NCBI GenBank assembly: GCA_020428465.1
Contig: JAGQMY010000006.1
Span: 1 to 62,957, forward strand
Length of the DNA: 62,957 nucleotides
Source of the DNA: Candidatus Saccharimonadota bacterium
Lineage (GTDB): Bacteria > Patescibacteriota > Saccharimonadia > Saccharimonadales > SZUA-47
Direction of reading: 5' to 3'
Positions 10,355-62,957 of the stretch are shown piece by piece. A program made the translations under genes and the position numbers. The number at the start of each line of letters is the position of its first letter. Positions within the stretch are counted from its first letter, which is position 1. The notes under the pieces are model-generated. The model ran no database searches. It had not been told where the DNA came from and worked only from the letters and a program-made list of their open reading frames with translations.

Positions 10355-13045
10355 TCAAAGTTCGCCCCAATTATGGCCAATACTCACATCGACTTTTAGA
10401 TGAACACCTAGCTCAGGATAAATTTGCTCCATGGTTTCTTTCATCATTTTACCGATTTTTTCTGCGTCCCCCTCCATACACTCAACCATAATCGAGTCGT
10501 GTATCTGCATTATCTGCTTTGGAAAAGCAGAATTTCGGATTTCGGATTTCGGATTTCGTGCTTTTGACCAATATTCACGCTCAAATATCTCGTCGATTTT
10601 ACTCATAGCTAATTTCGTAAGGTCAGCCGCAGACCCCTGTATTGGCATATTTATAGCTGCACGGTAAGCTCCCTCGCGTACCATAAAGTTACTCGACTGC
10701 ACATCGGGTGTTGGCCTCCTGCGACCCATGACTGTTTCGACATAACCTTTGTCTTTGGCGTCCCTACGAAATCTATCGATCATTTCTCGAAGCTTCGGTC
10801 GAACCTCGAAATATTTATCGATAAACTGCTTCGCATCAGCATATGATATGCCCGTTCCTTCACTCAAACCGTGCACACCTTGCCCATACAGAATACCGAA
10901 ATTTACTGCCTTAGCTGCGTAGCGCATTTCCTTAGTCACATCATCCGGTGTGACACCCTGAATTAAAGCAGCTGTTTCGGTATGAATATCCCTATCATCG
11001 TTAAAGGCTTTAATCATTTGCTCGTCACCACTCATAGCAGCAGCAATTCGTAACTCGAATTGACTATAGTCGGCGCTTATCAGCACATTACCAGGTTCTG
11101 CGATAAATCCTTCACGGATTTTTCGTCCGAGTTCAGTGCGTACCGGAATATTCTGCAGATTTGGATCATTGCTAGATAACCTGCCGGTCGCAGCAACTGT
11201 CATGTTCATCGTGCTGTGAACACGAGAGTTTTCATCAACCATCGTCGGCAATGGATCGACATAGGTACTTTTAAGCTTGGTGTACTCCCTGTATTTCTCA
11301 ATTTCGTCAATGATTGGATGTGTACCTTTTAGTTTGCCTAGGACATTGCTAGCAGTGCTGTAGTGCCCTGCTTTACCTTTTTTAGTCACATTAGTTGGCA
11401 AGCCCAATTTATCGAACAAAATTTCACTTAACTGGCTCGGACTCGAGATGTTAAATTCCTGATCAGCATAGCCATAAATCGTTTGTTCCACATCACTAAT
11501 CTGATCTGTTAGTTGTTCAGATAACTTGCCGAAGAACTTTGTATCAAGTTTCATCCCGACTCTCTCAAGTCGAGCTAGTACCGGTATTACCGGCCAATCA
11601 ACAGTCTCTGCCATTTTAATTAAGCTCGTAACTTCACTCATCTGTTCACCCTGCAAATTAGCGAGCTCCCTGATAACTGCAACGATTTCGGCAGATTTGC
11701 TCAATAGCTCATCATCGTCCAAGTCTTCTAGCTCTACCTCGTAACCTAAATCATTTGATGCTTGTTCACTCAAAGTTTGATCACGTCTAAGAGCATCTAC
11801 AGTAAAAGCACCTATTAGAGTGTCGTGTGAAACACGAGGTAATTTATCTACGCCCAGCTCCAACAAAACCTTAAATGAATTTTTTAAGTCATGCCCGATT
11901 ACAGAAGTTGGAAAGTTGAAGGCTGATCCGCCAGCTGGCGGACGAAAGTCTAAAGTACGTAAGTCAATCGCATAGCAGGTTTCTGAATCAGCTAGTAGCA
12001 AAATGGTCGGGTTCTTGCCGTGCTTACCAGCGCAACGAGCGTGCAGTACGACATCACCCTCGAGCTTTATATTCTTAATTTCGTCGCTAGATTTTACATA
12101 TACGACTTTAGGTAGGTGTAGCTCATGCGTACTTTCCGCTGGCGCGATAGATTCGACATTATGATTCTGCATACCCGCTGGTAAATTTCGAAGTAAACTC
12201 TTGAACTCCAGTCTCTTCAAAATCGCCGCTAATTCTGCTGTGTCTAGTTTATCGACATCCATTTCCTCGAGATCTAATGGCACAGGCGCGTCATCATAGA
12301 GTTGCGCTACTTCTCGGCTAAGATAAGCCGAATCCTTCCCCATCTCTAGTTTTTTTGACACAACTGGTTTAATTAGTGCTAAATTCTCGTAAACACCGTC
12401 GAGTGTTCCGTATTCTCTGAGTAACTCACTAGCAGTCTTCTCCCCTATGCCCGGTACTCCTGGGATGTTGTCACTTGAGTCGCCCTTCAGAGCCTTTGAG
12501 TCAAGAAATTGCTCAGTTTTGATTCCGTATTTTTCTTCGAAACTTTTTGGATCAAATTTTTCTATATTAGTCAGGCCTTTTTTCAGCGCATACAGATGAA
12601 TATGCTCATCGATTGTCTGCAAAGCGTCCAGGTCTGATGTGATTAACATAGTTTCTAGTCCAGCCTTTTCGGCCTTTTTAGCCAGAGTATGCATAATGTC
12701 GTCAGCTTCATAATCGTCGTACTCATATAGTGGCCAATTAAACACTTCTAAAACCTCGTGAAGTATCGGGATCTGTGCATAAAAATCAGGGGGAGCAGGC
12801 TTACGTCCGGCTTTGTAATCTGGATAAATCGCCAGACGCTTTCTAATGTTAGTCTTAGGTTTATCCCACGCCACGCACACATAATCTGGTTTCAAGCGCT
12901 TAATTAGCTCTAAAGCCATGGCACAGAAACCATAAACTCCACCAGTAGGAGTTCCATCTTTAGTGCTGAGATTCGGCATGGCATAGTAGCCTCTATAAAA
13001 GACGCTTTTTCCATCTATTATCGCCAACTTTTTCCGCTCACTCAT
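10355..13045 (-). CDS. polA: DNA polymerase I
   Basis: 5'-nuclease N-terminus (LAIIDGKS..GVPGIGEKTA), motif A DYSQFELRI, motif B RYAAKAVNFGILYG, motif C QIHDSIMVE. Confidence 0.95.
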   Translation of the reverse strand: MSERKKLAIIDGKSVFYRGYYAMPNLSTKDGTPTGGVYGFCAMALELIKRLKPDYVCVAWDKPKTNIRKRLAIYPDYKAGRKPAPPDFYAQIPILHEVLEVFNWPLYEYDDYEADDIMHTLAKKAEKAGLETMLITSDLDALQTIDEHIHLYALKKGLTNIEKFDPKSFEEKYGIKTEQFLDSKALKGDSSDNIPGVPGIGEKTASELLREYGTLDGVYENLALIKPVVSKKLEMGKDSAYLSREVAQLYDDAPVPLDLEEMDVDKLDTAELAAILKRLEFKSLLRNLPAGMQNHNVESIAPAESTHELHLPKVVYVKSSDEIKNIKLEGDVVLHARCAGKHGKNPTILLLADSETCYAIDLRTLDFRPPAGGSAFNFPTSVIGHDLKNSFKVLLELGVDKLPRVSHDTLIGAFTVDALRRDQTLSEQASNDLGYEVELEDLDDDELLSKSAEIVAVIRELANLQGEQMSEVTSLIKMAETVDWPVIPVLARLERVGMKLDTKFFGKLSEQLTDQISDVEQTIYGYADQEFNISSPSQLSEILFDKLGLPTNVTKKGKAGHYSTASNVLGKLKGTHPIIDEIEKYREYTKLKSTYVDPLPTMVDENSRVHSTMNMTVAATGRLSSNDPNLQNIPVRTELGRKIREGFIAEPGNVLISADYSQFELRIAAAMSGDEQMIKAFNDDRDIHTETAALIQGVTPDDVTKEMRYAAKAVNFGILYGQGVHGLSEGTGISYADAKQFIDKYFEVRPKLREMIDRFRRDAKDKGYVETVMGRRRPTPDVQSSNFMVREGAYRAAINMPIQGSAADLTKLAMSKIDEIFEREYWSKARNPKSEIRNSAFPKQIMQIHDSIMVECMEGDAEKIGKMMKETMEQIYPELGVHLKVDVSIGHNWGEL
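10532..10559. repeat. heptanucleotide tandem repeat (atttcgg x3 plus atttcgt) inside polA
   Basis: Read directly from the sequence. It encodes RNPKSEIRN in a loop just upstream of motif C. Confidence 0.9.
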
Positions 13046-39310: not shown

Positions 39311-39485
39311 AGAGGGAGGGATTCGGTCACCTTCGGCGACCCCCGAACTTCATTCTTGGCAACAAGTTGCCAGAAGAAGATTCGCTTCCGAACTGCCACC
39401 GGCAGTTCTCACCCTATCGGGTTCGAATTCGCAATTCACAATCCTTCATAGCTCACCCGTTGTTAACGGGATGAGCGACGAAGGA
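39311..39485 (-). repeat. tRNA-3'-flank structured element: terminator-like hairpin, inverted T-arm-like piece, 68-nt two-hairpin core, and a 15-nt copy of the tRNA-Ser(UGA) 3' part
   Basis: 39311-39325 (agagggagggattcg) equals 39492-39506 inside the tRNA. The core 39341-39408 is 55/68 identical to the reverse complement of 60092-60159. Confidence 0.75.
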
Positions 39486-55369: not shown

Positions 55370-57931
55370 ATGAAATTACCAAAAACATACATTCCAAAAG
55401 ATTTTGAGTCTGATATTTACGATTTATGGGAAAAAAGTGGAGCATTTACGCCAAAGGGTAAGGGTGAACCATTTACTGTAGTGATGCCACCGCCTAACGC
55501 CAATGCTTCACTGCACATTGGTCATATACTTTTTTTTAGTATTCAGGATACAGTAATTCGTTACCAGAGAATGAAGGGTAGGGATGCACTATGGTTACCG
55601 GGTGCTGATCACGCCGGATTCGAGACGCAAGTAGTTTATGAAAAACATCTAGCCAAAGAAGGTAAAAGTCGGTTCGATTACAGTAGGGAAGAGCTATATA
55701 ACCAAATCTATGACTTTGTCGGCCAAAACCGCCAAAATTTTAATGATATTTTTAGAAAATTAGGTGCCAGTTGTGACTGGAGTAGATTTACTTTTACGCT
55801 TGATGAAAAAGTTGTAACCACAGCCTACCAAACGTTTAAAAAGCTATGGGATGACGGCTTAATTTACAGAGGTGAGAGACTTGTTAATTACTGCACGCAT
55901 CACCGAACTGGTTTCGCCGATATTGAAGTCCAGTACGAAGACCAGACGTCTCCACTTTATTACCTCAAATACGGCCCATTTACCCTCGCCACCACCCGAC
56001 CCGAAACAAAATTTGGGGATACAGCAGTAGCAGTTCATCCTGACGATGATAGGTACAAAGAATTTGTAAACAAAGTTATTACCGTAGAAGGGGTTAATGG
56101 GCCATTCGAAATTAGAGTTATAGCTGATGAAATGGTTGACAGAAAATTCGGAACTGGTGTGGTTAAAATCACCCCTGCCCACGACTTCAACGATTGGGAA
56201 GTCGCCCAGCGACATAACCTAGAAGCAGTTAGAGTAATTAATCACGACGGTACCATGAACCACAGAGCAGGGCGCTTTGAAGGCATGCCTGTAGCAGAAG
56301 CCCGAAAGGCTATCGTTGAAGCCATGAAAGAAAAAGGCTTACTCGAGAAGGTCGACGAAAAATACCAGAACCGGGTAGGGAAGTGCTACAAATGCGGTAC
56401 TACAATTGAGCCGATGCTAATGGACCAATGGTTCATAGATATGCGCAAAATTGCCGAACCTGCTATAAAAGCTCTGAGGGATAAGAAAATTAAATTCTAC
56501 CCTGAAGCCAAGCGAAACCAGACTATAGAGTATTTAAAAAACGTTAAAGACTGGAATATTAGCCGGCAGATTGCCTGGGGCATCCCTATTCCTGCTTTTC
56601 AGAATATTGATGATAAAGATGATTGGATTTTTGACGAACGCGTTGATCAAGAAATAATTGAGATTGATGGCAAAACCTATAGTCGTGACCCTGATGTTTT
56701 TGATACCTGGTTCTCAAGTGGACAATGGCCTTATATCACTACAAATTACCCTGAAACAGAAGATTTCAAGCGATATTATCCAACCAGCTTGATGGAAACA
56801 GGTGTGGACATTCTATATCAATGGGTCGCTCGCATGATTTGTCTCGGTCTATATGTAACTGGAGATATTCCGTTCAAAGAAGTGTACTTACATGGAATGG
56901 TCCGCGCTGAAGATGGACGAAAGATGAGTAAAAGTCTAGGAAATGTTGTCGATCCACAACCTTTAATCGAAGAATTTGGTACTGATGCCGTGCGCATGGG
57001 TATGATGGCAGGCAGAAGCCCGGCTGATAGTGCAGCATTCTCTCCAGGAAAGATCTTAGCTGCCCGAAATTTCTGTAATAAGCTATGGAATATTGCCCGT
57101 TTCACAGAAGTTATCCTAGAGGGTAAGCAAGTTGATTTAGGCAAAGTCAAAGCAGTAACACCAGCTGATAATTGGGTGTTGAGCAAATTACAACATGCAA
57201 TTGAATCTATTTCTAACCATCTAGACAATTACCGTATGAATGATGCCTATGAAGCCTTATACCATTTCGTTTGGGACGACTTTGCCGATTGGTACATAGA
57301 AGCAAGCAAGAAGGAGCTTAACCCGGATTTATTAGTACACTGCCTTGAGTCAGTTCTTAAATTAGCACATCCTTTCGCTCCTTTTGTAAGCGAGACAATC
57401 TGGCAGACTCTCGAAATATCAAATGAGTCTATGTTAATAAGTCAAAATTGGCCCGAAGCAATTTCATTTGATCAGAAAATGGTAGATGAATTCGAGGAAA
57501 TCAGAAACATTGTCACCGAAACCAGAACAATCATGTCGGCAATGCAATTAGAAAAAAGTACCCTATACCACACTGGTGTCGAGTTCCTAACTCAACACTC
57601 TGATCTAATAAGTCAGCTTGCTCATATAGAAGGAGTACATGAAGTCGAAGACGGGAAGGGGCTTCACCTAACCACTACGAGTCATCGTTGCTGGCTAGAC
57701 GTAGATCGCGAGCGAGCTGCGAAATATACACAAAAGCTAACAAACACACGAGACGAAGCACAAAAGCGCTTAGAGAGCCTAAAAAAGCGTTTAGAGAATA
57801 AGAATTATGTTAAGCAAGCCCCCAAAGCGCTGGTTGATGAGACAAAACAACAATTAGCCGATACAGAACAGATGATAACGAACATAAGTAATGAAATCGA
57901 AAGAATTTCAGCAGCTGAGAACTTAGGCTAG
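55370..57931 (+). CDS. valS: valine--tRNA ligase
   Basis: HIGH (PNANASLHIGH), KMSKS, and a C-terminal coiled coil. Confidence 0.97.
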   Translation: MKLPKTYIPKDFESDIYDLWEKSGAFTPKGKGEPFTVVMPPPNANASLHIGHILFFSIQDTVIRYQRMKGRDALWLPGADHAGFETQVVYEKHLAKEGKSRFDYSREELYNQIYDFVGQNRQNFNDIFRKLGASCDWSRFTFTLDEKVVTTAYQTFKKLWDDGLIYRGERLVNYCTHHRTGFADIEVQYEDQTSPLYYLKYGPFTLATTRPETKFGDTAVAVHPDDDRYKEFVNKVITVEGVNGPFEIRVIADEMVDRKFGTGVVKITPAHDFNDWEVAQRHNLEAVRVINHDGTMNHRAGRFEGMPVAEARKAIVEAMKEKGLLEKVDEKYQNRVGKCYKCGTTIEPMLMDQWFIDMRKIAEPAIKALRDKKIKFYPEAKRNQTIEYLKNVKDWNISRQIAWGIPIPAFQNIDDKDDWIFDERVDQEIIEIDGKTYSRDPDVFDTWFSSGQWPYITTNYPETEDFKRYYPTSLMETGVDILYQWVARMICLGLYVTGDIPFKEVYLHGMVRAEDGRKMSKSLGNVVDPQPLIEEFGTDAVRMGMMAGRSPADSAAFSPGKILAARNFCNKLWNIARFTEVILEGKQVDLGKVKAVTPADNWVLSKLQHAIESISNHLDNYRMNDAYEALYHFVWDDFADWYIEASKKELNPDLLVHCLESVLKLAHPFAPFVSETIWQTLEISNESMLISQNWPEAISFDQKMVDEFEEIRNIVTETRTIMSAMQLEKSTLYHTGVEFLTQHSDLISQLAHIEGVHEVEDGKGLHLTTTSHRCWLDVDRERAAKYTQKLTNTRDEAQKRLESLKKRLENKNYVKQAPKALVDETKQQLADTEQMITNISNEIERISAAENLG

Positions 57932-58785
57932 AATTCTAAAGCACTTTTAATTCTTCTAACTGATTCTTCAGGTCGTAAATCGTCAAACCACATAACTTTC
58001 CATCCGAACTGTTCTGCTGCCATCAAATTGGTCCTACTATCGTCTATAAACAATATTTCGTCGCCCGGAACACCCGCTTTACTACTGGCAATAGAGTATA
58101 TCTGTGGCTCGGGCTTTATATAGCCTACCTCAGAAGAATCAATGATAACGTCGTAAGAGATTCTCGGGAGGAGACCTCTGTCAATCATTTGTTTAATGTA
58201 ACCCGGCATAATATTTGATAGTAAACCAACTTTGTAGTTTTTCGACAGCCAGCTCATCAGCTCAATCATCTCCGTAATAGGCTCGACGGAGTCCATGTAA
58301 TAAGAAGTCCAGTCAATAGAATCTACCCTAAGTTGACGGGCAAAACTCTCATTAAACGCCTCTAGTGACATCTCTCCTTTACAAACTGCGTCGTTGTAGT
58401 GCCAAAAAGCAGTTTCTACCAATTCTGCAGAGACTCCCTTGTCCATTGAAATTCTGGAAAATGCCGAGTGAAAAAAGTGCACTAGACAGCCATTGATATC
58501 TACATACACAAATGATATGCCTGAGCGACTGCGCTTTTTTATCATTGGCTGAGTTGAAATATCCGAGCCATCTAACAGAGAATCAAGCGGTACGCCCAAG
58601 GAGGATGCAATTCGCGCAACGGTGAATACCGAAGGCGTCTTTATCGCTCCACGCTCGATTTTTGTTAGGGTTGAATATGATAAACCAGCAACATTACACA
58701 ACTCTTGTTGCGTCATCCCAAAGGCCTGCCTAGCTCGCTGAATAGCCTTGCCTAGAGCCTTTTCCGAAGCCTCACTCCCACTCAT
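57928..58785 (-). CDS. XRE-family HTH domain fused to a HAD-like hydrolase domain
   Basis: The N-terminus IQRARQAFGMTQQELCNVAGLSYSTLTKIERG is HTH_3-like. The C-terminus ILFIDDSRTNLMAAEQFGW is HAD motif IV-like. Confidence 0.65.
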   Translation of the reverse strand: MSGSEASEKALGKAIQRARQAFGMTQQELCNVAGLSYSTLTKIERGAIKTPSVFTVARIASSLGVPLDSLLDGSDISTQPMIKKRSRSGISFVYVDINGCLVHFFHSAFSRISMDKGVSAELVETAFWHYNDAVCKGEMSLEAFNESFARQLRVDSIDWTSYYMDSVEPITEMIELMSWLSKNYKVGLLSNIMPGYIKQMIDRGLLPRISYDVIIDSSEVGYIKPEPQIYSIASSKAGVPGDEILFIDDSRTNLMAAEQFGWKVMWFDDLRPEESVRRIKSALEF

Positions 58786-58847
58786 ATAGGCCTAATAGTA
58801 CCAGTTTTCCTGTTCTATTTCTAGTAAATTAGTATTAAACGGCTAGC

Positions 58848-59018
58848 TTATCCAACGAGGGAAAGTACGCTTAGCATTATTAAGAATATTAATACTCCAG
58901 CTACTGCTGCTGCGGCAAAACTTGAGCCACTGTTACCGCCGGTTTTTTTGTAAAACATACTACCAATCCATACAGCTGCACCAACGGAAAGGATTAATGC
59001 AATTAAGACATTGCTCAT
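58848..59018 (-). CDS. small two-TM hypothetical protein (56 aa)
   Basis: Not in the ORF track because it is under 60 aa. ATGA overlap with the stop of the TM2 gene. Two hydrophobic helices. Confidence 0.35.
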   Translation of the reverse strand: MSNVLIALILSVGAAVWIGSMFYKKTGGNSGSSFAAAAVAGVLIFLIMLSVLSLVG

Positions 59019-59218
59019 TTAGCATTTCTTTCTAGCTCGCCGAGTTCTTTGGTCCACATAAGTGCATCAATAATCCACCATACACCAACGCCTCCGACTG
59101 TTAGTAGCTTCAATACACCTAACCCAGTCTCACCTTTATAGAATCTGTCAGCACCGAAATAGCCGAAAGACCAGCTAATGATTGTCCCAACTAATGTATA
59201 ACGCCATTCATTTTTCAT
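59015..59218 (-). CDS. TM2-domain membrane protein
   Basis: FGADRFYKGETGLGVLKLLTVGGVGVWWIIDA is the TM2 domain pattern. Confidence 0.75.
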   Translation of the reverse strand: MKNEWRYTLVGTIISWSFGYFGADRFYKGETGLGVLKLLTVGGVGVWWIIDALMWTKELGELERNAK

Positions 59219-59264
59219 AAGTATTCCTTTTTGTTACTAGTTATATATTATCACTATAGAAAAA

Positions 59265-59318
59265 TCCTCCATAGCTCCGTAAATACGGAGCGACAGAGGA
59301 TGGCGGAGAGGGGGAGAT
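59265..59318 (-). repeat. displaced tRNA-Ser(CGA) 3'-end copy (18 nt) with its conserved terminator hairpin
   Basis: 59301-59318 (tggcggagagggggagat) is identical to 59454-59471. The hairpin at 59265-59300 is the reverse complement of 60001-60035 with 2 substitutions and 1 indel. Confidence 0.8.
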
Positions 59319-59453
59319 GAGAAGGACCTAAATAATCTGTGCGCCGAGCATGTTAACCCGGGCAACAGACTATTTAGCGAACTCGCCTCGAGAATTCGAA
59401 TCTCTTCTCCAAAAGAAGAAAACGACCAGGATAAAACCTGGTCGCCCTTCTCC
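59319..59453 (-). repeat. 135-bp insert between tRNA-Ser(CGA) and its displaced 3'-end copy; carries its own terminator and an inverted degenerate tRNA-Ser copy
   Basis: Terminator CGACCAGG-UUUUAU-CCUGGUCG plus a U-tract (59411-59444). Then GGAGAAGAGATTCGAATTCTC...GCGCAC...GGTCCTTCTC mirrors the tRNA in reverse orientation. Confidence 0.65.
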
Positions 59454-59544
59454 TGGCGGAGAGGGGGAGATTCGAACTCCCGATAGAGTTGCCCCTATAC
59501 TGCATTTCGAGTGCAGCGCACTAGACCAACTATGCGACCTCTCC
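59454..59544 (-). tRNA. tRNA-Ser(CGA), CCA encoded
   Basis: Manual fold: acceptor GGAGAGG, anticodon stem CTGCA/TGCAG, loop CUCGAAA, long variable arm, T arm GGGAG-TTCGAAT-CTCCC. Confidence 0.9.
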
Positions 59545-59610
59545 AAGCTCTGGTAATTATACTATAATCATGCTAATATTACCCCTGTTTGAGTAAGATG
59601 TAGCTTCCCC

Positions 59611-59725
59611 AAAATCGAGAAAGGATTCTCGATTTTGAAGAAACGGCGACTTCCTAGGATCGTCATGAGTTTTAGGGAACTTGTTTTGCTAAAACTTCGG
59701 CGATCCTAGGTTTACGCGCCGTTTC
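59611..59725 (+). repeat. two strong hairpins abutting the tRNA-Arg 5' end
   Basis: 59611-59636 is a 10-bp perfect stem. 59640-59725 is a three-segment stem (9+10+8 bp: gaaacggcg/cgccgtttc, cctaggatcg/cgatcctagg, agttttag/ctaaaact) with an apical AACTTGTT motif. Confidence 0.7.
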
Positions 59726-59802
<77 letters not shown>

Positions 59803-60194
59803 ATAAAAATGACTCAAGTTATCTTGGGTCTTTTTTATTGGACCATCCAGTATCTTTGAACGTACGACCGTAGGCGAGAAAGCTCGGGGAGCTTTCGAGT
59901 TTTCCTTGCTTGGCCACCCGAGATGCTTTAGCTCTCGAGGGTGCGAAAAATAATAAGTTTCTCGTTCAATCCGCCAGATGTCGGAGTATCGGGTGTACCG
60001 TCCTCCGTCGCTCCGTGTTTACGGAGCATGGAGGATTTTACGTTCTATACAGTTTTCACGCTATCGAGCTTCAGCTGAAGGGAGTACATGAGAATGTCCG
60101 GTGGACATTCGCAAGGAAACCTTCTTCTGGCAACTTGTTGCCAAGAACGAAGTTTCGGGCCCGCGCTTGCGTGGGCAAATCGTATCGGGTGTAC
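59803..60194 (+). repeat. nested tRNA-3'-flank insertions at tRNA-Arg
   Basis: 3'-end copies at 59986-59999 (14 nt) and 60176-60194 (19 nt). Inverted tRNA pieces at 59855-59869 (15 nt, T arm) and 59938-59948 (5' end plus flank). Displaced terminator hairpin at 60001-60035 plus TTTT. 68-nt core at 60092-60159. Confidence 0.75.
59811..59836 (+). terminator. intrinsic terminator after tRNA-Arg
   Basis: GACTCAAG-TTAT-CTTGGGTC followed by TTTTTT. Confidence 0.75.
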
Positions 60195-60261
60195 TACCAT
60201 CTTTCGTAACATTCTATGTGGAGTAATAGGGGTTTTTAGATTGTTTTGATACTCTTTATTC

Positions 60262-60654
60262 ATGAGTCACCCAATAAAACATTACTCTCATCTATTTTAT
60301 AAAGAGTTAGCATTGTCTTTATTGGCACTTTTAAGTATAGCCCTCGTAATTATTGAATACCTCCTAAATGTAAGTGAACCAATTAGGGCAAGTATTATTC
60401 GTTTTGATATCCTAGTAGCTATTATATTTTTGATAGATTTCACTTGGTACTTCTCGAAGAGTAAGAGAAAGCTAAAATATATTAAATCTAACTGGTTTTT
60501 ACTACTAGCTTCTATTCCAATTGTAGATAGTTGGGCTGAACTTTTGAGGGGTCTTAGGTTATTCGAGTTAGTCAGACTGGTTCGTGCGGGAGAGCATTTA
60601 AACTATGTAATTAACGGGCAGGGAGGTAAGAATGCTAATACACGTAGGCTCTAA
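60262..60654 (+). CDS. stand-alone voltage-sensor-domain-like membrane protein (ion-transport family S1-S4 without a pore)
   Basis: Four hydrophobic segments. The last one, LLRGLRLFELVRLVRAG, has Arg at every third position like an S4 helix. 130 aa. Confidence 0.5.
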   Translation: MSHPIKHYSHLFYKELALSLLALLSIALVIIEYLLNVSEPIRASIIRFDILVAIIFLIDFTWYFSKSKRKLKYIKSNWFLLLASIPIVDSWAELLRGLRLFELVRLVRAGEHLNYVINGQGGKNANTRRL

Positions 60655-61162
60655 AAATCCGACAAAAATCAATGGAGTTAAAAATGTACTTGCTAAAAGT
60701 GAGGAGTATAAAGATGCTGAAATAGTCGGTATTGATGCGAAGGTCGAAGAGTTTGGGCACCCAAAAACTCTCGAGGAGACAATTGCGGGTGCGAAGGAGC
60801 GAGCTAAAAATGTTTTTAACGGTGCCGAGCTAAGCTTTGGCATTGAGAGTGGACTTTTCCCGGTAGAATCTGCGAAAAGTGGATATTTAGAAACGACTGT
60901 TTGTGCAATCTACGACGGGAAACAATTTCATCTAGGTATCGCACCCGCTTTTGAATGGCCGAAGGGGATGACCGAGCTAATCTTAGCCGGGCAAGACGGA
61001 AGCCAAGCTTTCAAGGCCATGGGACTAACTTCACATGAAAAAATCGGCACTGCGAAAGGCGCAATTTTCGAGCTAACACATGGTAAAATCGACCGTACAA
61101 AACTTAATGAGCTGGCCGTTATGATGGCTCTAATACACCTCGAGAACCCTGATTTATATTAG
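60632..61162 (+). CDS. inosine/xanthosine triphosphatase (YjjX/DUF84 family NTPase)
   Basis: HVGSKNPTKINGV..GIESGLF.. pattern. Strong GGGAGG SD. Confidence 0.7.
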   Translation: MLIHVGSKNPTKINGVKNVLAKSEEYKDAEIVGIDAKVEEFGHPKTLEETIAGAKERAKNVFNGAELSFGIESGLFPVESAKSGYLETTVCAIYDGKQFHLGIAPAFEWPKGMTELILAGQDGSQAFKAMGLTSHEKIGTAKGAIFELTHGKIDRTKLNELAVMMALIHLENPDLY

Positions 61163-61165
61163 TTT

Positions 61166-62116
61166 TTAAAACATTTTCTTAAGATAGTATTTTGTAACTC
61201 GTACAGTATACTCCCAGAGATCGTTTTGGTGTTTTTCTTTTTCTTTTACGAATCCCTGCTTATTTAGGTATCGCTTGATCAAGAAAAAACAGACAAGGTA
61301 CACAAATACCTCAATAATCATTACTATCCCCATACGCTCAATAACCTCGTTTTTTATAGGGACCACACTTAGTGCGCCGGCAAGTCCGGCTTTCGGGTAA
61401 ATTGAAATTCTGTTGGCCAAAAAACTCCAGAAAATATAAGAGGTAGTAAATGATATAGGCAATGAGATTATTGAATAGTAGAACATTCGTTTAATCCAAA
61501 AAAGAAGGTCGTTGCGCGATGGATGAAAGTACCACAGCGACATAGCCAACAACACAAATAAAAGTGGCGCAACCAATGTAGCCCACCAGAAGTATCTATA
61601 AAGTCTTTGCAGGAAGAGCTTTATAGACGAATGAGCTGGGTCGTATTCAACGACAAAATGACCGTCTTTCAGAAATGCTGTATCTATTTTTGGGTTGATA
61701 CTCTTAATTTTTTCTTCCTGCTTTGTGGCTAGATAGCTAAATCTGAAAGCACTACTTCCACTACTAATCCACTCGTGAAAATCTACTGAGAACTGGCTAT
61801 TGATGTCAGCTTTTATGGATGGTGTGAAGGTTTCGTCTACTGCTTGATTAATGTCTCCCTCTGATAGAACACCTTCGCTTATTTTTATGTTATTTGTCCT
61901 GATTGCCATATTGTTTATTAGGTTTTTTTCGAGTCCGCTTCGCTTAATAACGCCTGATACAGCACCAGGGGATGAAACAGTACTCCAAAATAAAATCGCC
62001 AAAAATGATAAGCTCAAAAATACCCCAAGATAAGACACAATGTAAGCGGAAATAAGCCGTTTTAATCGGGCAAATGAAAAAATGCTTTTAAATTTAGCTT
62101 TGAACCATGCAAGCAT
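61166..62116 (-). CDS. hypothetical integral membrane protein
   Basis: 316-aa ORF: N-terminal TM, extracytoplasmic segment, then about four C-terminal TM helices. Confidence 0.5.
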   Translation of the reverse strand: MLAWFKAKFKSIFSFARLKRLISAYIVSYLGVFLSLSFLAILFWSTVSSPGAVSGVIKRSGLEKNLINNMAIRTNNIKISEGVLSEGDINQAVDETFTPSIKADINSQFSVDFHEWISSGSSAFRFSYLATKQEEKIKSINPKIDTAFLKDGHFVVEYDPAHSSIKLFLQRLYRYFWWATLVAPLLFVLLAMSLWYFHPSRNDLLFWIKRMFYYSIISLPISFTTSYIFWSFLANRISIYPKAGLAGALSVVPIKNEVIERMGIVMIIEVFVYLVCFFLIKRYLNKQGFVKEKEKHQNDLWEYTVRVTKYYLKKMF

Positions 62117-62121
62117 CAGTC

Positions 62122-62634
62122 TTAGAAACGAATCCTCTTCGTGAATCTATCTATCAAATCAAGATTTCTTGATTCAAATGGCAAATATTGCTCTAGCTTG
62201 GATTGAATTTGTTCTTCATCCTCAGGAGGGAAGTACATAACAATTGTTGGTGATATCCGATTAAGCCGTTTTAGCCATATACTATCTAACGCTCCTTCTT
62301 CGACTACCGAAAAAGACCTAAATTCTGAGTAAGGGAAAAATTGATTGTCGATTTTGACTCCCGATTCATCAAGTTCATAATTTTTCTCTGATGGCTTTTT
62401 CTTAGCATATGAGCTCATTGCGAACGCCGATGCTACTATGACAATAACAGCGAGCTTGTCGTGCGATATCAGAAAAACAGCCACAGCTAAAACCGCTGCA
62501 GCGCCAAATAAAATCCCATGCCATCCCATAGATTTTTCATGAACTATATACTCTGATGCTGTCCAGGAAATAGTCTGTTTGTCGACTTCAGGTTGAGCAA
62601 TCTGATTTGTTTGCTGACTTGAAGTTTCTTCCAT
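62122..62634 (-). CDS. hypothetical membrane protein
   Basis: Two central TM helices. The ORF-track start at 62682 is TTG; the first ATG is at 62634. Confidence 0.45.
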   Translation of the reverse strand: MEETSSQQTNQIAQPEVDKQTISWTASEYIVHEKSMGWHGILFGAAAVLAVAVFLISHDKLAVIVIVASAFAMSSYAKKKPSEKNYELDESGVKIDNQFFPYSEFRSFSVVEEGALDSIWLKRLNRISPTIVMYFPPEDEEQIQSKLEQYLPFESRNLDLIDRFTKRIRF

Positions 62635-62718
62635 AAGCAATATTGTAGCATGTATTACTGTGTTGGTAAGTTTATGGTTCAAACTAAAACAACCGTGGCA
62701 AGCACGGTCATTTTAGTC

Positions 62719-62957
62719 TGGCTCAAGAGAGAGGTGAAAAAGTCCAGTGGACTTTTGCAAGACCGGAAACGCTGCGCAAATTATTGCTAGAGCTGAGGTG
62801 GGGTCGCGGAATTTGGCTTTAGCCAAATATCTGTGACTTCGTTCGAATCCCGTCCCGTGATCACGAAAAAACGTCTTTGAAAACAAGTTTTCAAGAGTTT
62901 GTTTCCTTGCAAAATGCCACAAGCATTTATCACCCACGCAAAGCACTCAATGTGCTT
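62719..62957. repeat. further copy or copies of the tRNA-flank element family, running off the window end
   Basis: 62874-62930 (tctttgaaaacaagttttcaagag + tttgtttccttgc + aaatgccacaagcattt) parallels the core at 39351-39408. An inverted partial arm lies at 62737-62769. A T-arm-like gttcgaatcc lies at 62841-62850. Confidence 0.55.

Follow-up and report, generated by a model that had tools for sequence, protein, structure and literature searches.

The tRNA-Ser(CGA) gene studied here is followed by an insert of 135 bp and by a second, displaced copy of its own 3' end. With a probability of about 55%, we consider that a structured cassette without genes and without a recombinase, which targets tRNA genes, lies at this tRNA-Ser(CGA). 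The locus belongs to a window of 62,957 nucleotides (the whole stretch of DNA that was analysed), at positions 1 to 62,957 of contig JAGQMY010000006.1 of a Candidatus Saccharimonadota bacterium. Coordinates given without a contig or locus name refer to this window.

The cassette would have been inserted into the T-loop region of the tRNA gene. It would have brought its own copy of the tRNA 3' end and a terminator. Because the insert would supply both of them, the tRNA gene would stay intact, and the former 3' end would be pushed downstream. Such units would form a Saccharimonadales-wide class with several module types, encoding no enzyme of their own. They would be exchanged among tRNA genes as DNA, through recombination at the tRNA 3' end. 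We infer that the unit arrived by insertion and that movement occurs by recombination at the tRNA end. The module would be the selected part, either as a recognition structure or as a cargo RNA. The best reading of the unit is a variant of the tRNA-targeting integrative elements, of a kind for which we found no description in Rfam or in papers.

If the units are insertions, the Saccharibacteria contain a large number of gene-less elements that have gone unrecognised. These would have remodelled nearly half of the tRNA loci and left the tRNAs unbroken. With Saccharibacteria that can be cultivated, one can test what moves a cassette of 150 bp that restores its target every time.

The tRNA-Ser(CGA) gene and its displaced 3' end

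All the features of the Ser unit are on the reverse strand (-). The intact tRNA-Ser(CGA) occupies 59454..59544 and has its CCA encoded. It was recognized by ARAGORN and by the Rfam tRNA model (57 bits). Sequence comparison and blastn-short place an exact direct copy of its last 18 nt, from tRNA position 59 to CCA, at 59301..59318. This repeat had been reported by the initial annotation, and it is confirmed here. The match has an E value of 0.001 when all the tRNAs are compared with the whole 1-Mb genome (blastn-short), and the boundary of the repeat is exactly the CCA.

The displaced copy is not the bare 18-mer described at first. To the left of the module lies a partial direct T arm, GAGTTCG (59378..59384, read from the sequence and the fold), which copies the 5' half of the T-stem and the first bases of the T-loop. 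Therefore, the displaced copy is a split fragment of 25 nt. It consists of a T arm and an acceptor strand, and its T-loop is split by the hairpin of a conserved module, module D. Among 17 copies of this module, GTTCG is invariant or nearly so.

There are 153 bases from the CCA of the tRNA to the distal CCA, with 135 bp between the two repeats. On the sense strand, the order after the CCA is: terminator, UGGAGAAGAGAUUCGAAUUCUCGA, GGC, GAGUUCG, the hairpin CUAAAUAGUCU...AGAUUAUUUAG, a 9-nt linker, and the 18-nt direct copy. The piece UGGAGAAGAGAUUCGAAUUCUCGA is an inverted and decayed 3' end of a Ser tRNA. The insert does not code for proteins, since it only presents spurious open reading frames of 42-68 aa that overlap the tRNA too. 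No integrase gene is found within its 135 bp.

Contigs from other runs present the identical layout. Record 20 of X6 spans 58800-59483, and records 2 and 3 of X17 span 59183-59333 and 59368-59678, all with 0 differences; the best DNA holder among the compared runs may be the source sample. This speaks against a misassembly of the repeat, which would have refuted the initial annotation. It is true that the genome is a metagenome bin of 111 contigs, many of them ending in tRNAs or units. Nevertheless, chance similarity and misassembly are very unlikely causes of the Ser layout and keep a nearly negligible probability. The exact 18-nt repeat terminates at CCA, the layout is the same on contigs of other runs, and homologous units are known in many genomes.

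The contigs of 4 runs show no joint that skips the Ser insert, keeping in mind that contigs drop rare variants. Neither an empty-site allele nor a circular form was seen in them. Several contigs of the genome have an end inside a tRNA or a unit, which probably means that these repeats interrupt assemblies at tRNA genes. The units also create fragments of tRNAs by which annotation is misled. ARAGORN finds 34 tRNAs in this bin (G000, 98.6% complete), with none for Asn or Asp.

Directly after the tRNA, a terminator-like hairpin with a T-run occupies 59409..59448 (stem 59448-59419, 12 pairs). It agrees with the new terminator that had been proposed for the insert. Related units in two other genomes (G013 and G009) have terminators homologous to this hairpin. 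On the other side of the direct copy, a two-tier hairpin with a T-run at 59261..59300 belongs to the TCCTYYGTCGC family. The genome has four hairpins of this family, every one starting right behind a tRNA end or an end copy. The counterpart of the Ser hairpin behind the first end copy of tRNA-Arg (59998-60039) differs from it by 2 substitutions and 1 indel, and a similarly built hairpin also follows tRNA-Ser(UGA). Both observations were already made in the initial annotation. The interpretation of the hairpin as the old terminator is not supported. The family is also found directly behind the intact tRNA-Ser(UGA) and tRNA-Leu(CAG), so sharing the hairpin cannot date either end.

The insert had also been described as carrying an inverted degenerate copy of the whole tRNA. 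Of this copy, about 24 nt are real (59388..59411), comprising the complement of CCA, the acceptor strand and the T arm. They match the reverse complement of tRNA-Ser(CGA) at 20/26 positions, with a score of 27.5 that is reached by 2/1000 shuffles. The inverted piece fits the reverse complement of tRNA-Ser(UGA) slightly better (30.0 vs 27.5). The remainder is at chance level as tRNA: the reverse complement of tRNA positions 1-57 gives a score of 17.0 against the rest of the insert, equalled by 411/1000 shuffles. Likewise, GCGCAC and GGTCCTTCTC had been assigned to the pseudo-tRNA. GCGCAC, like the GGTC of GGTCCTTCTC, belongs to the conserved part of module D, and the trailing CTTCTC of GGTCCTTCTC falls in the variable linker past the module.

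We compared 24 units that have an exact end repeat of 13 nt, taken from this genome and from loci that were fetched because of their similarity, and thus not a random sample. In 23 of them, the 3' region of the tRNA is also present as an inverted copy with 13 or more identical positions. This recurrence fits the common mechanism that had been suggested. The inverted copy begins 31-67 nt past the tRNA end in most of these units. The mismatches of the inverted pieces are AT-biased, and the transitions are wobble-compatible in 23 cases vs 27 incompatible ones. RNA-level selection on the pairing between the inverted and direct arms was rejected, as there is no wobble bias. Given the AT bias and the lack of wobble preference, the inverted arm looks like a by-product of the formation of the unit and not like a selected pairing partner. 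Inverted tRNA pairs were also sought along the genome, as the initial annotation had recommended. At 9/30 tRNAs, the inverted match to the cognate tRNA is among the first two of 34, and it is absent at the tRNAs of this genome without units.

Modules and units in related genomes

Module D is a conserved hairpin with a variable apical stem, located at 59328..59377 (model R2 match 59311-59385, E 4.4e-15). A variable linker, GUCCUUCUC, lies between the module and the direct copy (59319..59327) and corresponds to poorly conserved alignment columns. The name type D is our own label for this element of about 50 nt, of which 13, then 17 copies were aligned. In the alignment, 96.4% of the cells are paired, and 9/20 pairs present double changes, a value equalled by 0/500 shuffles. 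The slid controls pair at just 30-44%. The lower stem is invariant, the apical stem covaries, and one G.U pair is invariant in 17/17 copies. The predicted fold of the tRNA-sense strand has -45.1 kcal/mol (z -5.2, 0/200 shuffles), and that of the opposite strand -35.6 kcal/mol (z -1.4). According to these predictions, the structure of module D is strand-specific.

In other Saccharibacteria, module D adjoins the genes of tRNA-Ser(UGA, GGA, GCU), Lys, Tyr, Asn and Gln. It sits in the T-loop of partial tRNA copies. With the covariance model, type D is detected in 23/41 related genomes (22/39 without the unpublished G010 and G022). These two genomes are included in our tallies of type A, type D, Y1_Tnp, and the tyrosine and serine recombinases. 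This genome has a single copy of type D, which therefore gives no sign of recent activity here. The exact pattern of the module was found at 12 loci among the genomes of 185,579 species; nine of them have titles of Saccharibacteria or Saccharimonadales, and three are titled just as bacterium. At one locus (L055:385-560, -), a degenerate full-length copy of tRNA-Gln(UUG) carries module D inside the T-loop, and there is no intact tRNA within 400 nt.

Most displaced pieces are split by type A, a three-helix module of ~95 nt. Its alignment shows compensatory change at 22/29 pairs. This genome has 19 strong copies. Type A is present in 31/41 related genomes (29/39 without the two unpublished ones), including 23/24 genomes of the family. 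The 23 family genomes have 6-25 matches each, in genome sizes of 0.6-1.2 Mb for the 24 searched. Elsewhere, it was found in 1/150 other genomes sampled across the phylum, and that genome is of the same order. In the window, one type A module is inside the second tRNA-Arg end copy, in the same unit class (60078..60187, +; model R1, E 1.3e-29). Another one is behind tRNA-Ser(UGA) (39314..39422, -; model R1, E 3.2e-33). Types A and D are conserved structured RNAs or DNAs awaiting a function. We discarded a targeting of the tRNA elbow. Type A is found in the T-loop and the D-loop, but also at position ~26 and in the anticodon arm, and no one structural rule covers these sites.

The architecture of the Ser locus is not exclusive to it. 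Exact same-strand repeats of the 3' end, of at least 17 nt and 120-400 nt downstream, occur at 8/34 tRNAs of the genome. The initial annotation would have fallen with the lack of comparable cases, and they do exist. tRNA-Pro(UGG) has three of these repeats and tRNA-Arg(GCG) has two, while upstream 5'-end repeats are found at four tRNAs of this genome. The units measure 139-209 bp in 23/24 cases, and one has 378 bp. Tandem stacks of units without genes are also observed.

Units homologous to the Ser unit are located behind Ser(UGA), Ser(GGA) and Ser(GCU) in five other genomes, with 68-79% identity over 177-202 nt. The homology covers the T arm, the terminator, the inverted piece, the module and the distal CCA. 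Beyond this point, the sequences are unrelated. An insert with its own tRNA end and terminator predicts that homology ends at the distal CCA. Hence the comparative data, with homology from the T arm to the distal CCA, agree with the succession of tRNA, new terminator, insert and displaced 3' end that had been read from the single locus.

The orthologous Ser(CGA) loci were compared in six relatives, as had been recommended, and they contain differing modules or a mere remnant. There is type A in G001 and G006, a type B-like module in G007, another module in G004, and a short remnant in G003. In G011, type D appears only after the adjacent Ser(UGA). On the other hand, the same type A subtype is found beside different tRNAs. 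The module of the tRNA-Arg unit is 94.7% identical over 76 nt to that of the tRNA-Pro unit in G001, 94.2% over 52 nt to that of the Leu(CAA) unit in G006, and 87.3% over 71 nt to those of the Ser(GCU) and Ser(GGA) units in G015. Each copy of this subtype has flanks that match the local tRNA. As orthologous loci differ, and one subtype is shared by different tRNAs with local flanks, the modules appear to move among tRNA loci.

The flanks also weigh in the opposite direction. At the Arg, Asn and Gln units they match the local tRNA, inverted piece included. An element with a tRNA-specific end cannot simply hop to another tRNA, so the locally matching flanks count against the insertion reading. 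Alternatively, the two direct copies could have stayed identical through gene conversion under vertical inheritance.

The body of tRNA-Ser(CGA) (window 59454-59544) is strongly unlike that of three congeners (G001, G003 and G004) and resembles that of G011, from another genus (loci L024, L026, L028 and L030). The sequences of these bodies hint that whole tRNA genes may be exchanged. In G015, the same double type A composite, whose first module has no third helix, is behind both Ser(GCU) and Ser(GGA) (L066 and L067). The composite was therefore copied whole between the two tRNA loci. At the end of our contig, two convergent type A modules (62724-62829, +, and 62835-62943, -) present the T-arm-like GTTCGAATCCCGTCCCGTGATCA between them. 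A tRNA is probably located just past the contig end, next to these modules.

Known systems and candidate movers

The T-loop is a known crossover sublocation of the islands found in tRNA genes. Integrase-less derivatives flanked by att sites (CIMEs and miniature islands) are mobilised in trans. The units are similar to them: they are non-autonomous, have att-like repeats at their borders, and would need a recombinase in trans. However, a cognate integrase was not found, and the sole tyrosine recombinase is the universal Xer-like one. REP/REPIN sequences with RAYT, and the palindromic elements of Rickettsia, are short structured repeats without genes that reach many copies in small genomes and may lie within genes. 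Our units are also short, structured, gene-less and multiplied. Unlike those elements, they are tied to the T- or D-loops of tRNAs and bring copies of the target, and they do not match the hairpins on the two sides of the RAYT gene of this genome.

Group I introns of tRNAs have in common with the units a structured element in a tRNA loop. They differ because the modules are in the T-loop of non-functional partial copies. We rejected an intron in a working tRNA. The excision of type A restores the tRNA in 0/20 copies, and the Ser copy contains just 25 nt of tRNA. There was no intron match of Rfam in 57000-62957.

There is also a likeness with the Islander-type islands of tRNA and tmRNA genes (PMC4383910). 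In both, the insert carries a replacement 3' end and the gene remains intact. A displaced fragment, from the T-loop to CCA, marks the far border, and tandem stacking occurs. Among the units, the internal sequence is common between copies and becomes locus-specific beyond the distal repeat. Unlike such islands, the Ser unit has only 135 bp between its repeats, without integrase or other gene. Moreover, the units have a covarying module in the T-loop and an inverted copy of the tRNA end, and the same module is found at many tRNAs with matching flanks. The mis-called tRNA fragments of prokaryotes (PMC9897764) are also partial and non-functional tRNA pieces beside intact genes. The pieces observed here differ in that conserved modules split them and inverted copies accompany them.

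No family of Rfam 15 corresponds to the unit. At E <= 1, the matches were just tRNA and two sub-threshold ones leaning on tRNA. A literature search for such units beside tRNA genes found no description. A wider proposal is that the modules (A, D and others) are new protein-less elements that propagate themselves. They would home to tRNA loops, mostly the T-loop and sometimes the D-loop or nearby, and generate the inverted and direct local copies of the tRNA end by a mechanism that copies the target and is known from no described transposon, intron or integrative element. We regard this proposal as tentative and somewhat unlikely.

The search for an enzyme considered six Pfam families across genomes. 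None of integrase, IS110, TnpB, reverse transcriptase, RAYT and serine recombinase tracks the modules. This genome, 98.6% complete, has one Xer-like tyrosine recombinase, of a type present in 39/41 genomes with or without modules. Large serine recombinases are present in 28/41 genomes, with two in this one, and are missing from the module-rich G002, G004 and G007. Among the 41 genomes, no cognate recombinase, either tyrosine or serine, was found to co-occur with the modules. A serine recombinase was discarded as the mover. It shows no correlation with the modules, and in contig C81 the recombinase island has the tRNA on one side and an older small unit on the other.

Other routes were equally discarded. 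A guide RNA, composed of a scaffold and a 20-nt tRNA guide in the manner of the IS110 bridge RNA or the TnpB omega RNA, was rejected, with 0 matches of PF01548 and PF07282 in the genome. An origin by reverse transcriptase, as a snap-back cDNA of the tRNA end, was rejected too. The sole reverse transcriptase of the genome is on the contaminant-like contig C106, and the enzyme is present in 8/41 genomes, including the module-free G020. The open frame on this contig of 1,560 bp (C106:1-858) has 285 aa with LINE-like reverse transcriptase motifs. It is probably a eukaryotic contamination (animal LINE-type). A phage or plasmid vector was rejected as well, since 2.9 million viral contigs gave no match to either module pattern.

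Other explanations and further tRNA loci

The Ser unit might instead be a resident and immobile tRNA-like small RNA, transcribed by read-through of the terminator, processed by the tRNA enzymes, and evolving in place. Its parts would be an acceptor-like stem, a T-arm-like hairpin, a T arm with module D, and a free CCA. When the sense strand is folded at minimum energy, GGAGA pairs with UCUCC beside a free CCA, and a GAGA-UUCGAAU-UCUC hairpin is formed. The strand-specific structure and the invariant G.U pair of module D also speak for an RNA. Besides, record 19 of X20, an RNA library, covers 60107-60262 of the neighbouring type A unit (156 nt, 0 differences), where DNA carry-over is possible. 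X20 is a single RNA run with no contig on the Ser insert, and it says nothing on its expression either way. Nonetheless, we find a resident RNA unlikely. A terminator separates the tRNA from the unit, and the region 59150-60300 has 0 promoter-like sites vs 1.8 expected. The acceptor stem with free CCA that this copy shows in its fold seems not to be kept elsewhere, as several other units have a 5' arm of poor complementarity. The inverted arm has an AT-biased decay without wobble preference. Finally, the same tRNA bears different modules in relatives.

Two more explanations involve larger elements or repair. A prophage or island could have entered the T-loop of tRNA-Ser and suffered a later internal deletion, with attL, attR and 135 bp as its scar. 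A direct repeat of the tRNA 3' end is a standard mark of such islands (PMC4383910). The genome even has a real case in C81, where a segment of ~4.3 kb with a 523-aa serine recombinase extends from tRNA(CAU) to displaced tRNA-end fragments. A scar is still quite improbable: narrow unit sizes, a common internal order and covarying modules across genera are unexpected of random deletion scars, tandem stacks of units have no genes, and the module in C81 belongs to an older small unit distal to the island and not to the island end. We give little credit as well to a by-product of repair or replication, in which template switching at terminator hairpins would form the copies and a HUH transposase (RAYT-type) would spread REP-like modules. 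It would account for the inverted piece that starts right at the terminator end, so that the tRNA end, the terminator and the inverted copy form one long palindrome. It would also account for the 1-3 nt common to the target at the junctions between module and flank. A RAYT-like gene is present in the genome, and Y1_Tnp is found in 16/31 genomes with type A vs 1/10 without it, although kinship confounds this contrast. However, Y1_Tnp is missing in 15/31 module-bearing genomes, including G004 with its 19 copies of type A. The RAYT gene is bordered on both sides by a different hairpin, and the nine loci fetched around Y1 genes contain no type A module. Mobilisation by RAYT was rejected on these last two results.

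The RAYT-like gene mentioned above encodes a HUH transposase of 207 aa (C86:20972-21595; L071 1973-2596). The hairpin on both of its sides is GTTAAGGGTCGGACCCTTAAC, likely a REP pair unrelated to the tRNA modules.

In C81, different elements are stacked at one tRNA. The island of ~4.3 kb (C81:20270-24610), with its large serine recombinase of 523 aa, is convergent to the 3' end of tRNA(CAU). Behind it come two displaced fragments of tRNA ends, together with a degenerate type A unit. Therefore, islands and units share a target but are separate things. The same tRNA(CAU) (C81:24588-25267, -; locus L089) is broken at position 33 by a group I intron of 605 nt, recognized by ARAGORN with introns and by Rfam (Intron_gpI, 59.2 bits, E 1.7e-13). 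Inside the intron, on the opposite strand, there is an ORF of 142 aa with Cys-rich HNH-like motifs.

A palindrome of 16 nt, TCCGCCAGYTGGCGGA, is present at 12 loci of the genome, for example at C51:5039, C82:246 and position 11927 of the window. At tRNA-Trp and tRNA-Phe, it is in the D-loop of the upstream 5' tRNA copies. In another locus (C1:3840-4110), an intact tRNA-Leu(UAG) is enclosed by two parts of a Leu(CAG)-like pseudo-tRNA, a 5' piece on one side and the 3' two-thirds on the other. The arrangement looks like the insertion of one whole tRNA gene into a second one.
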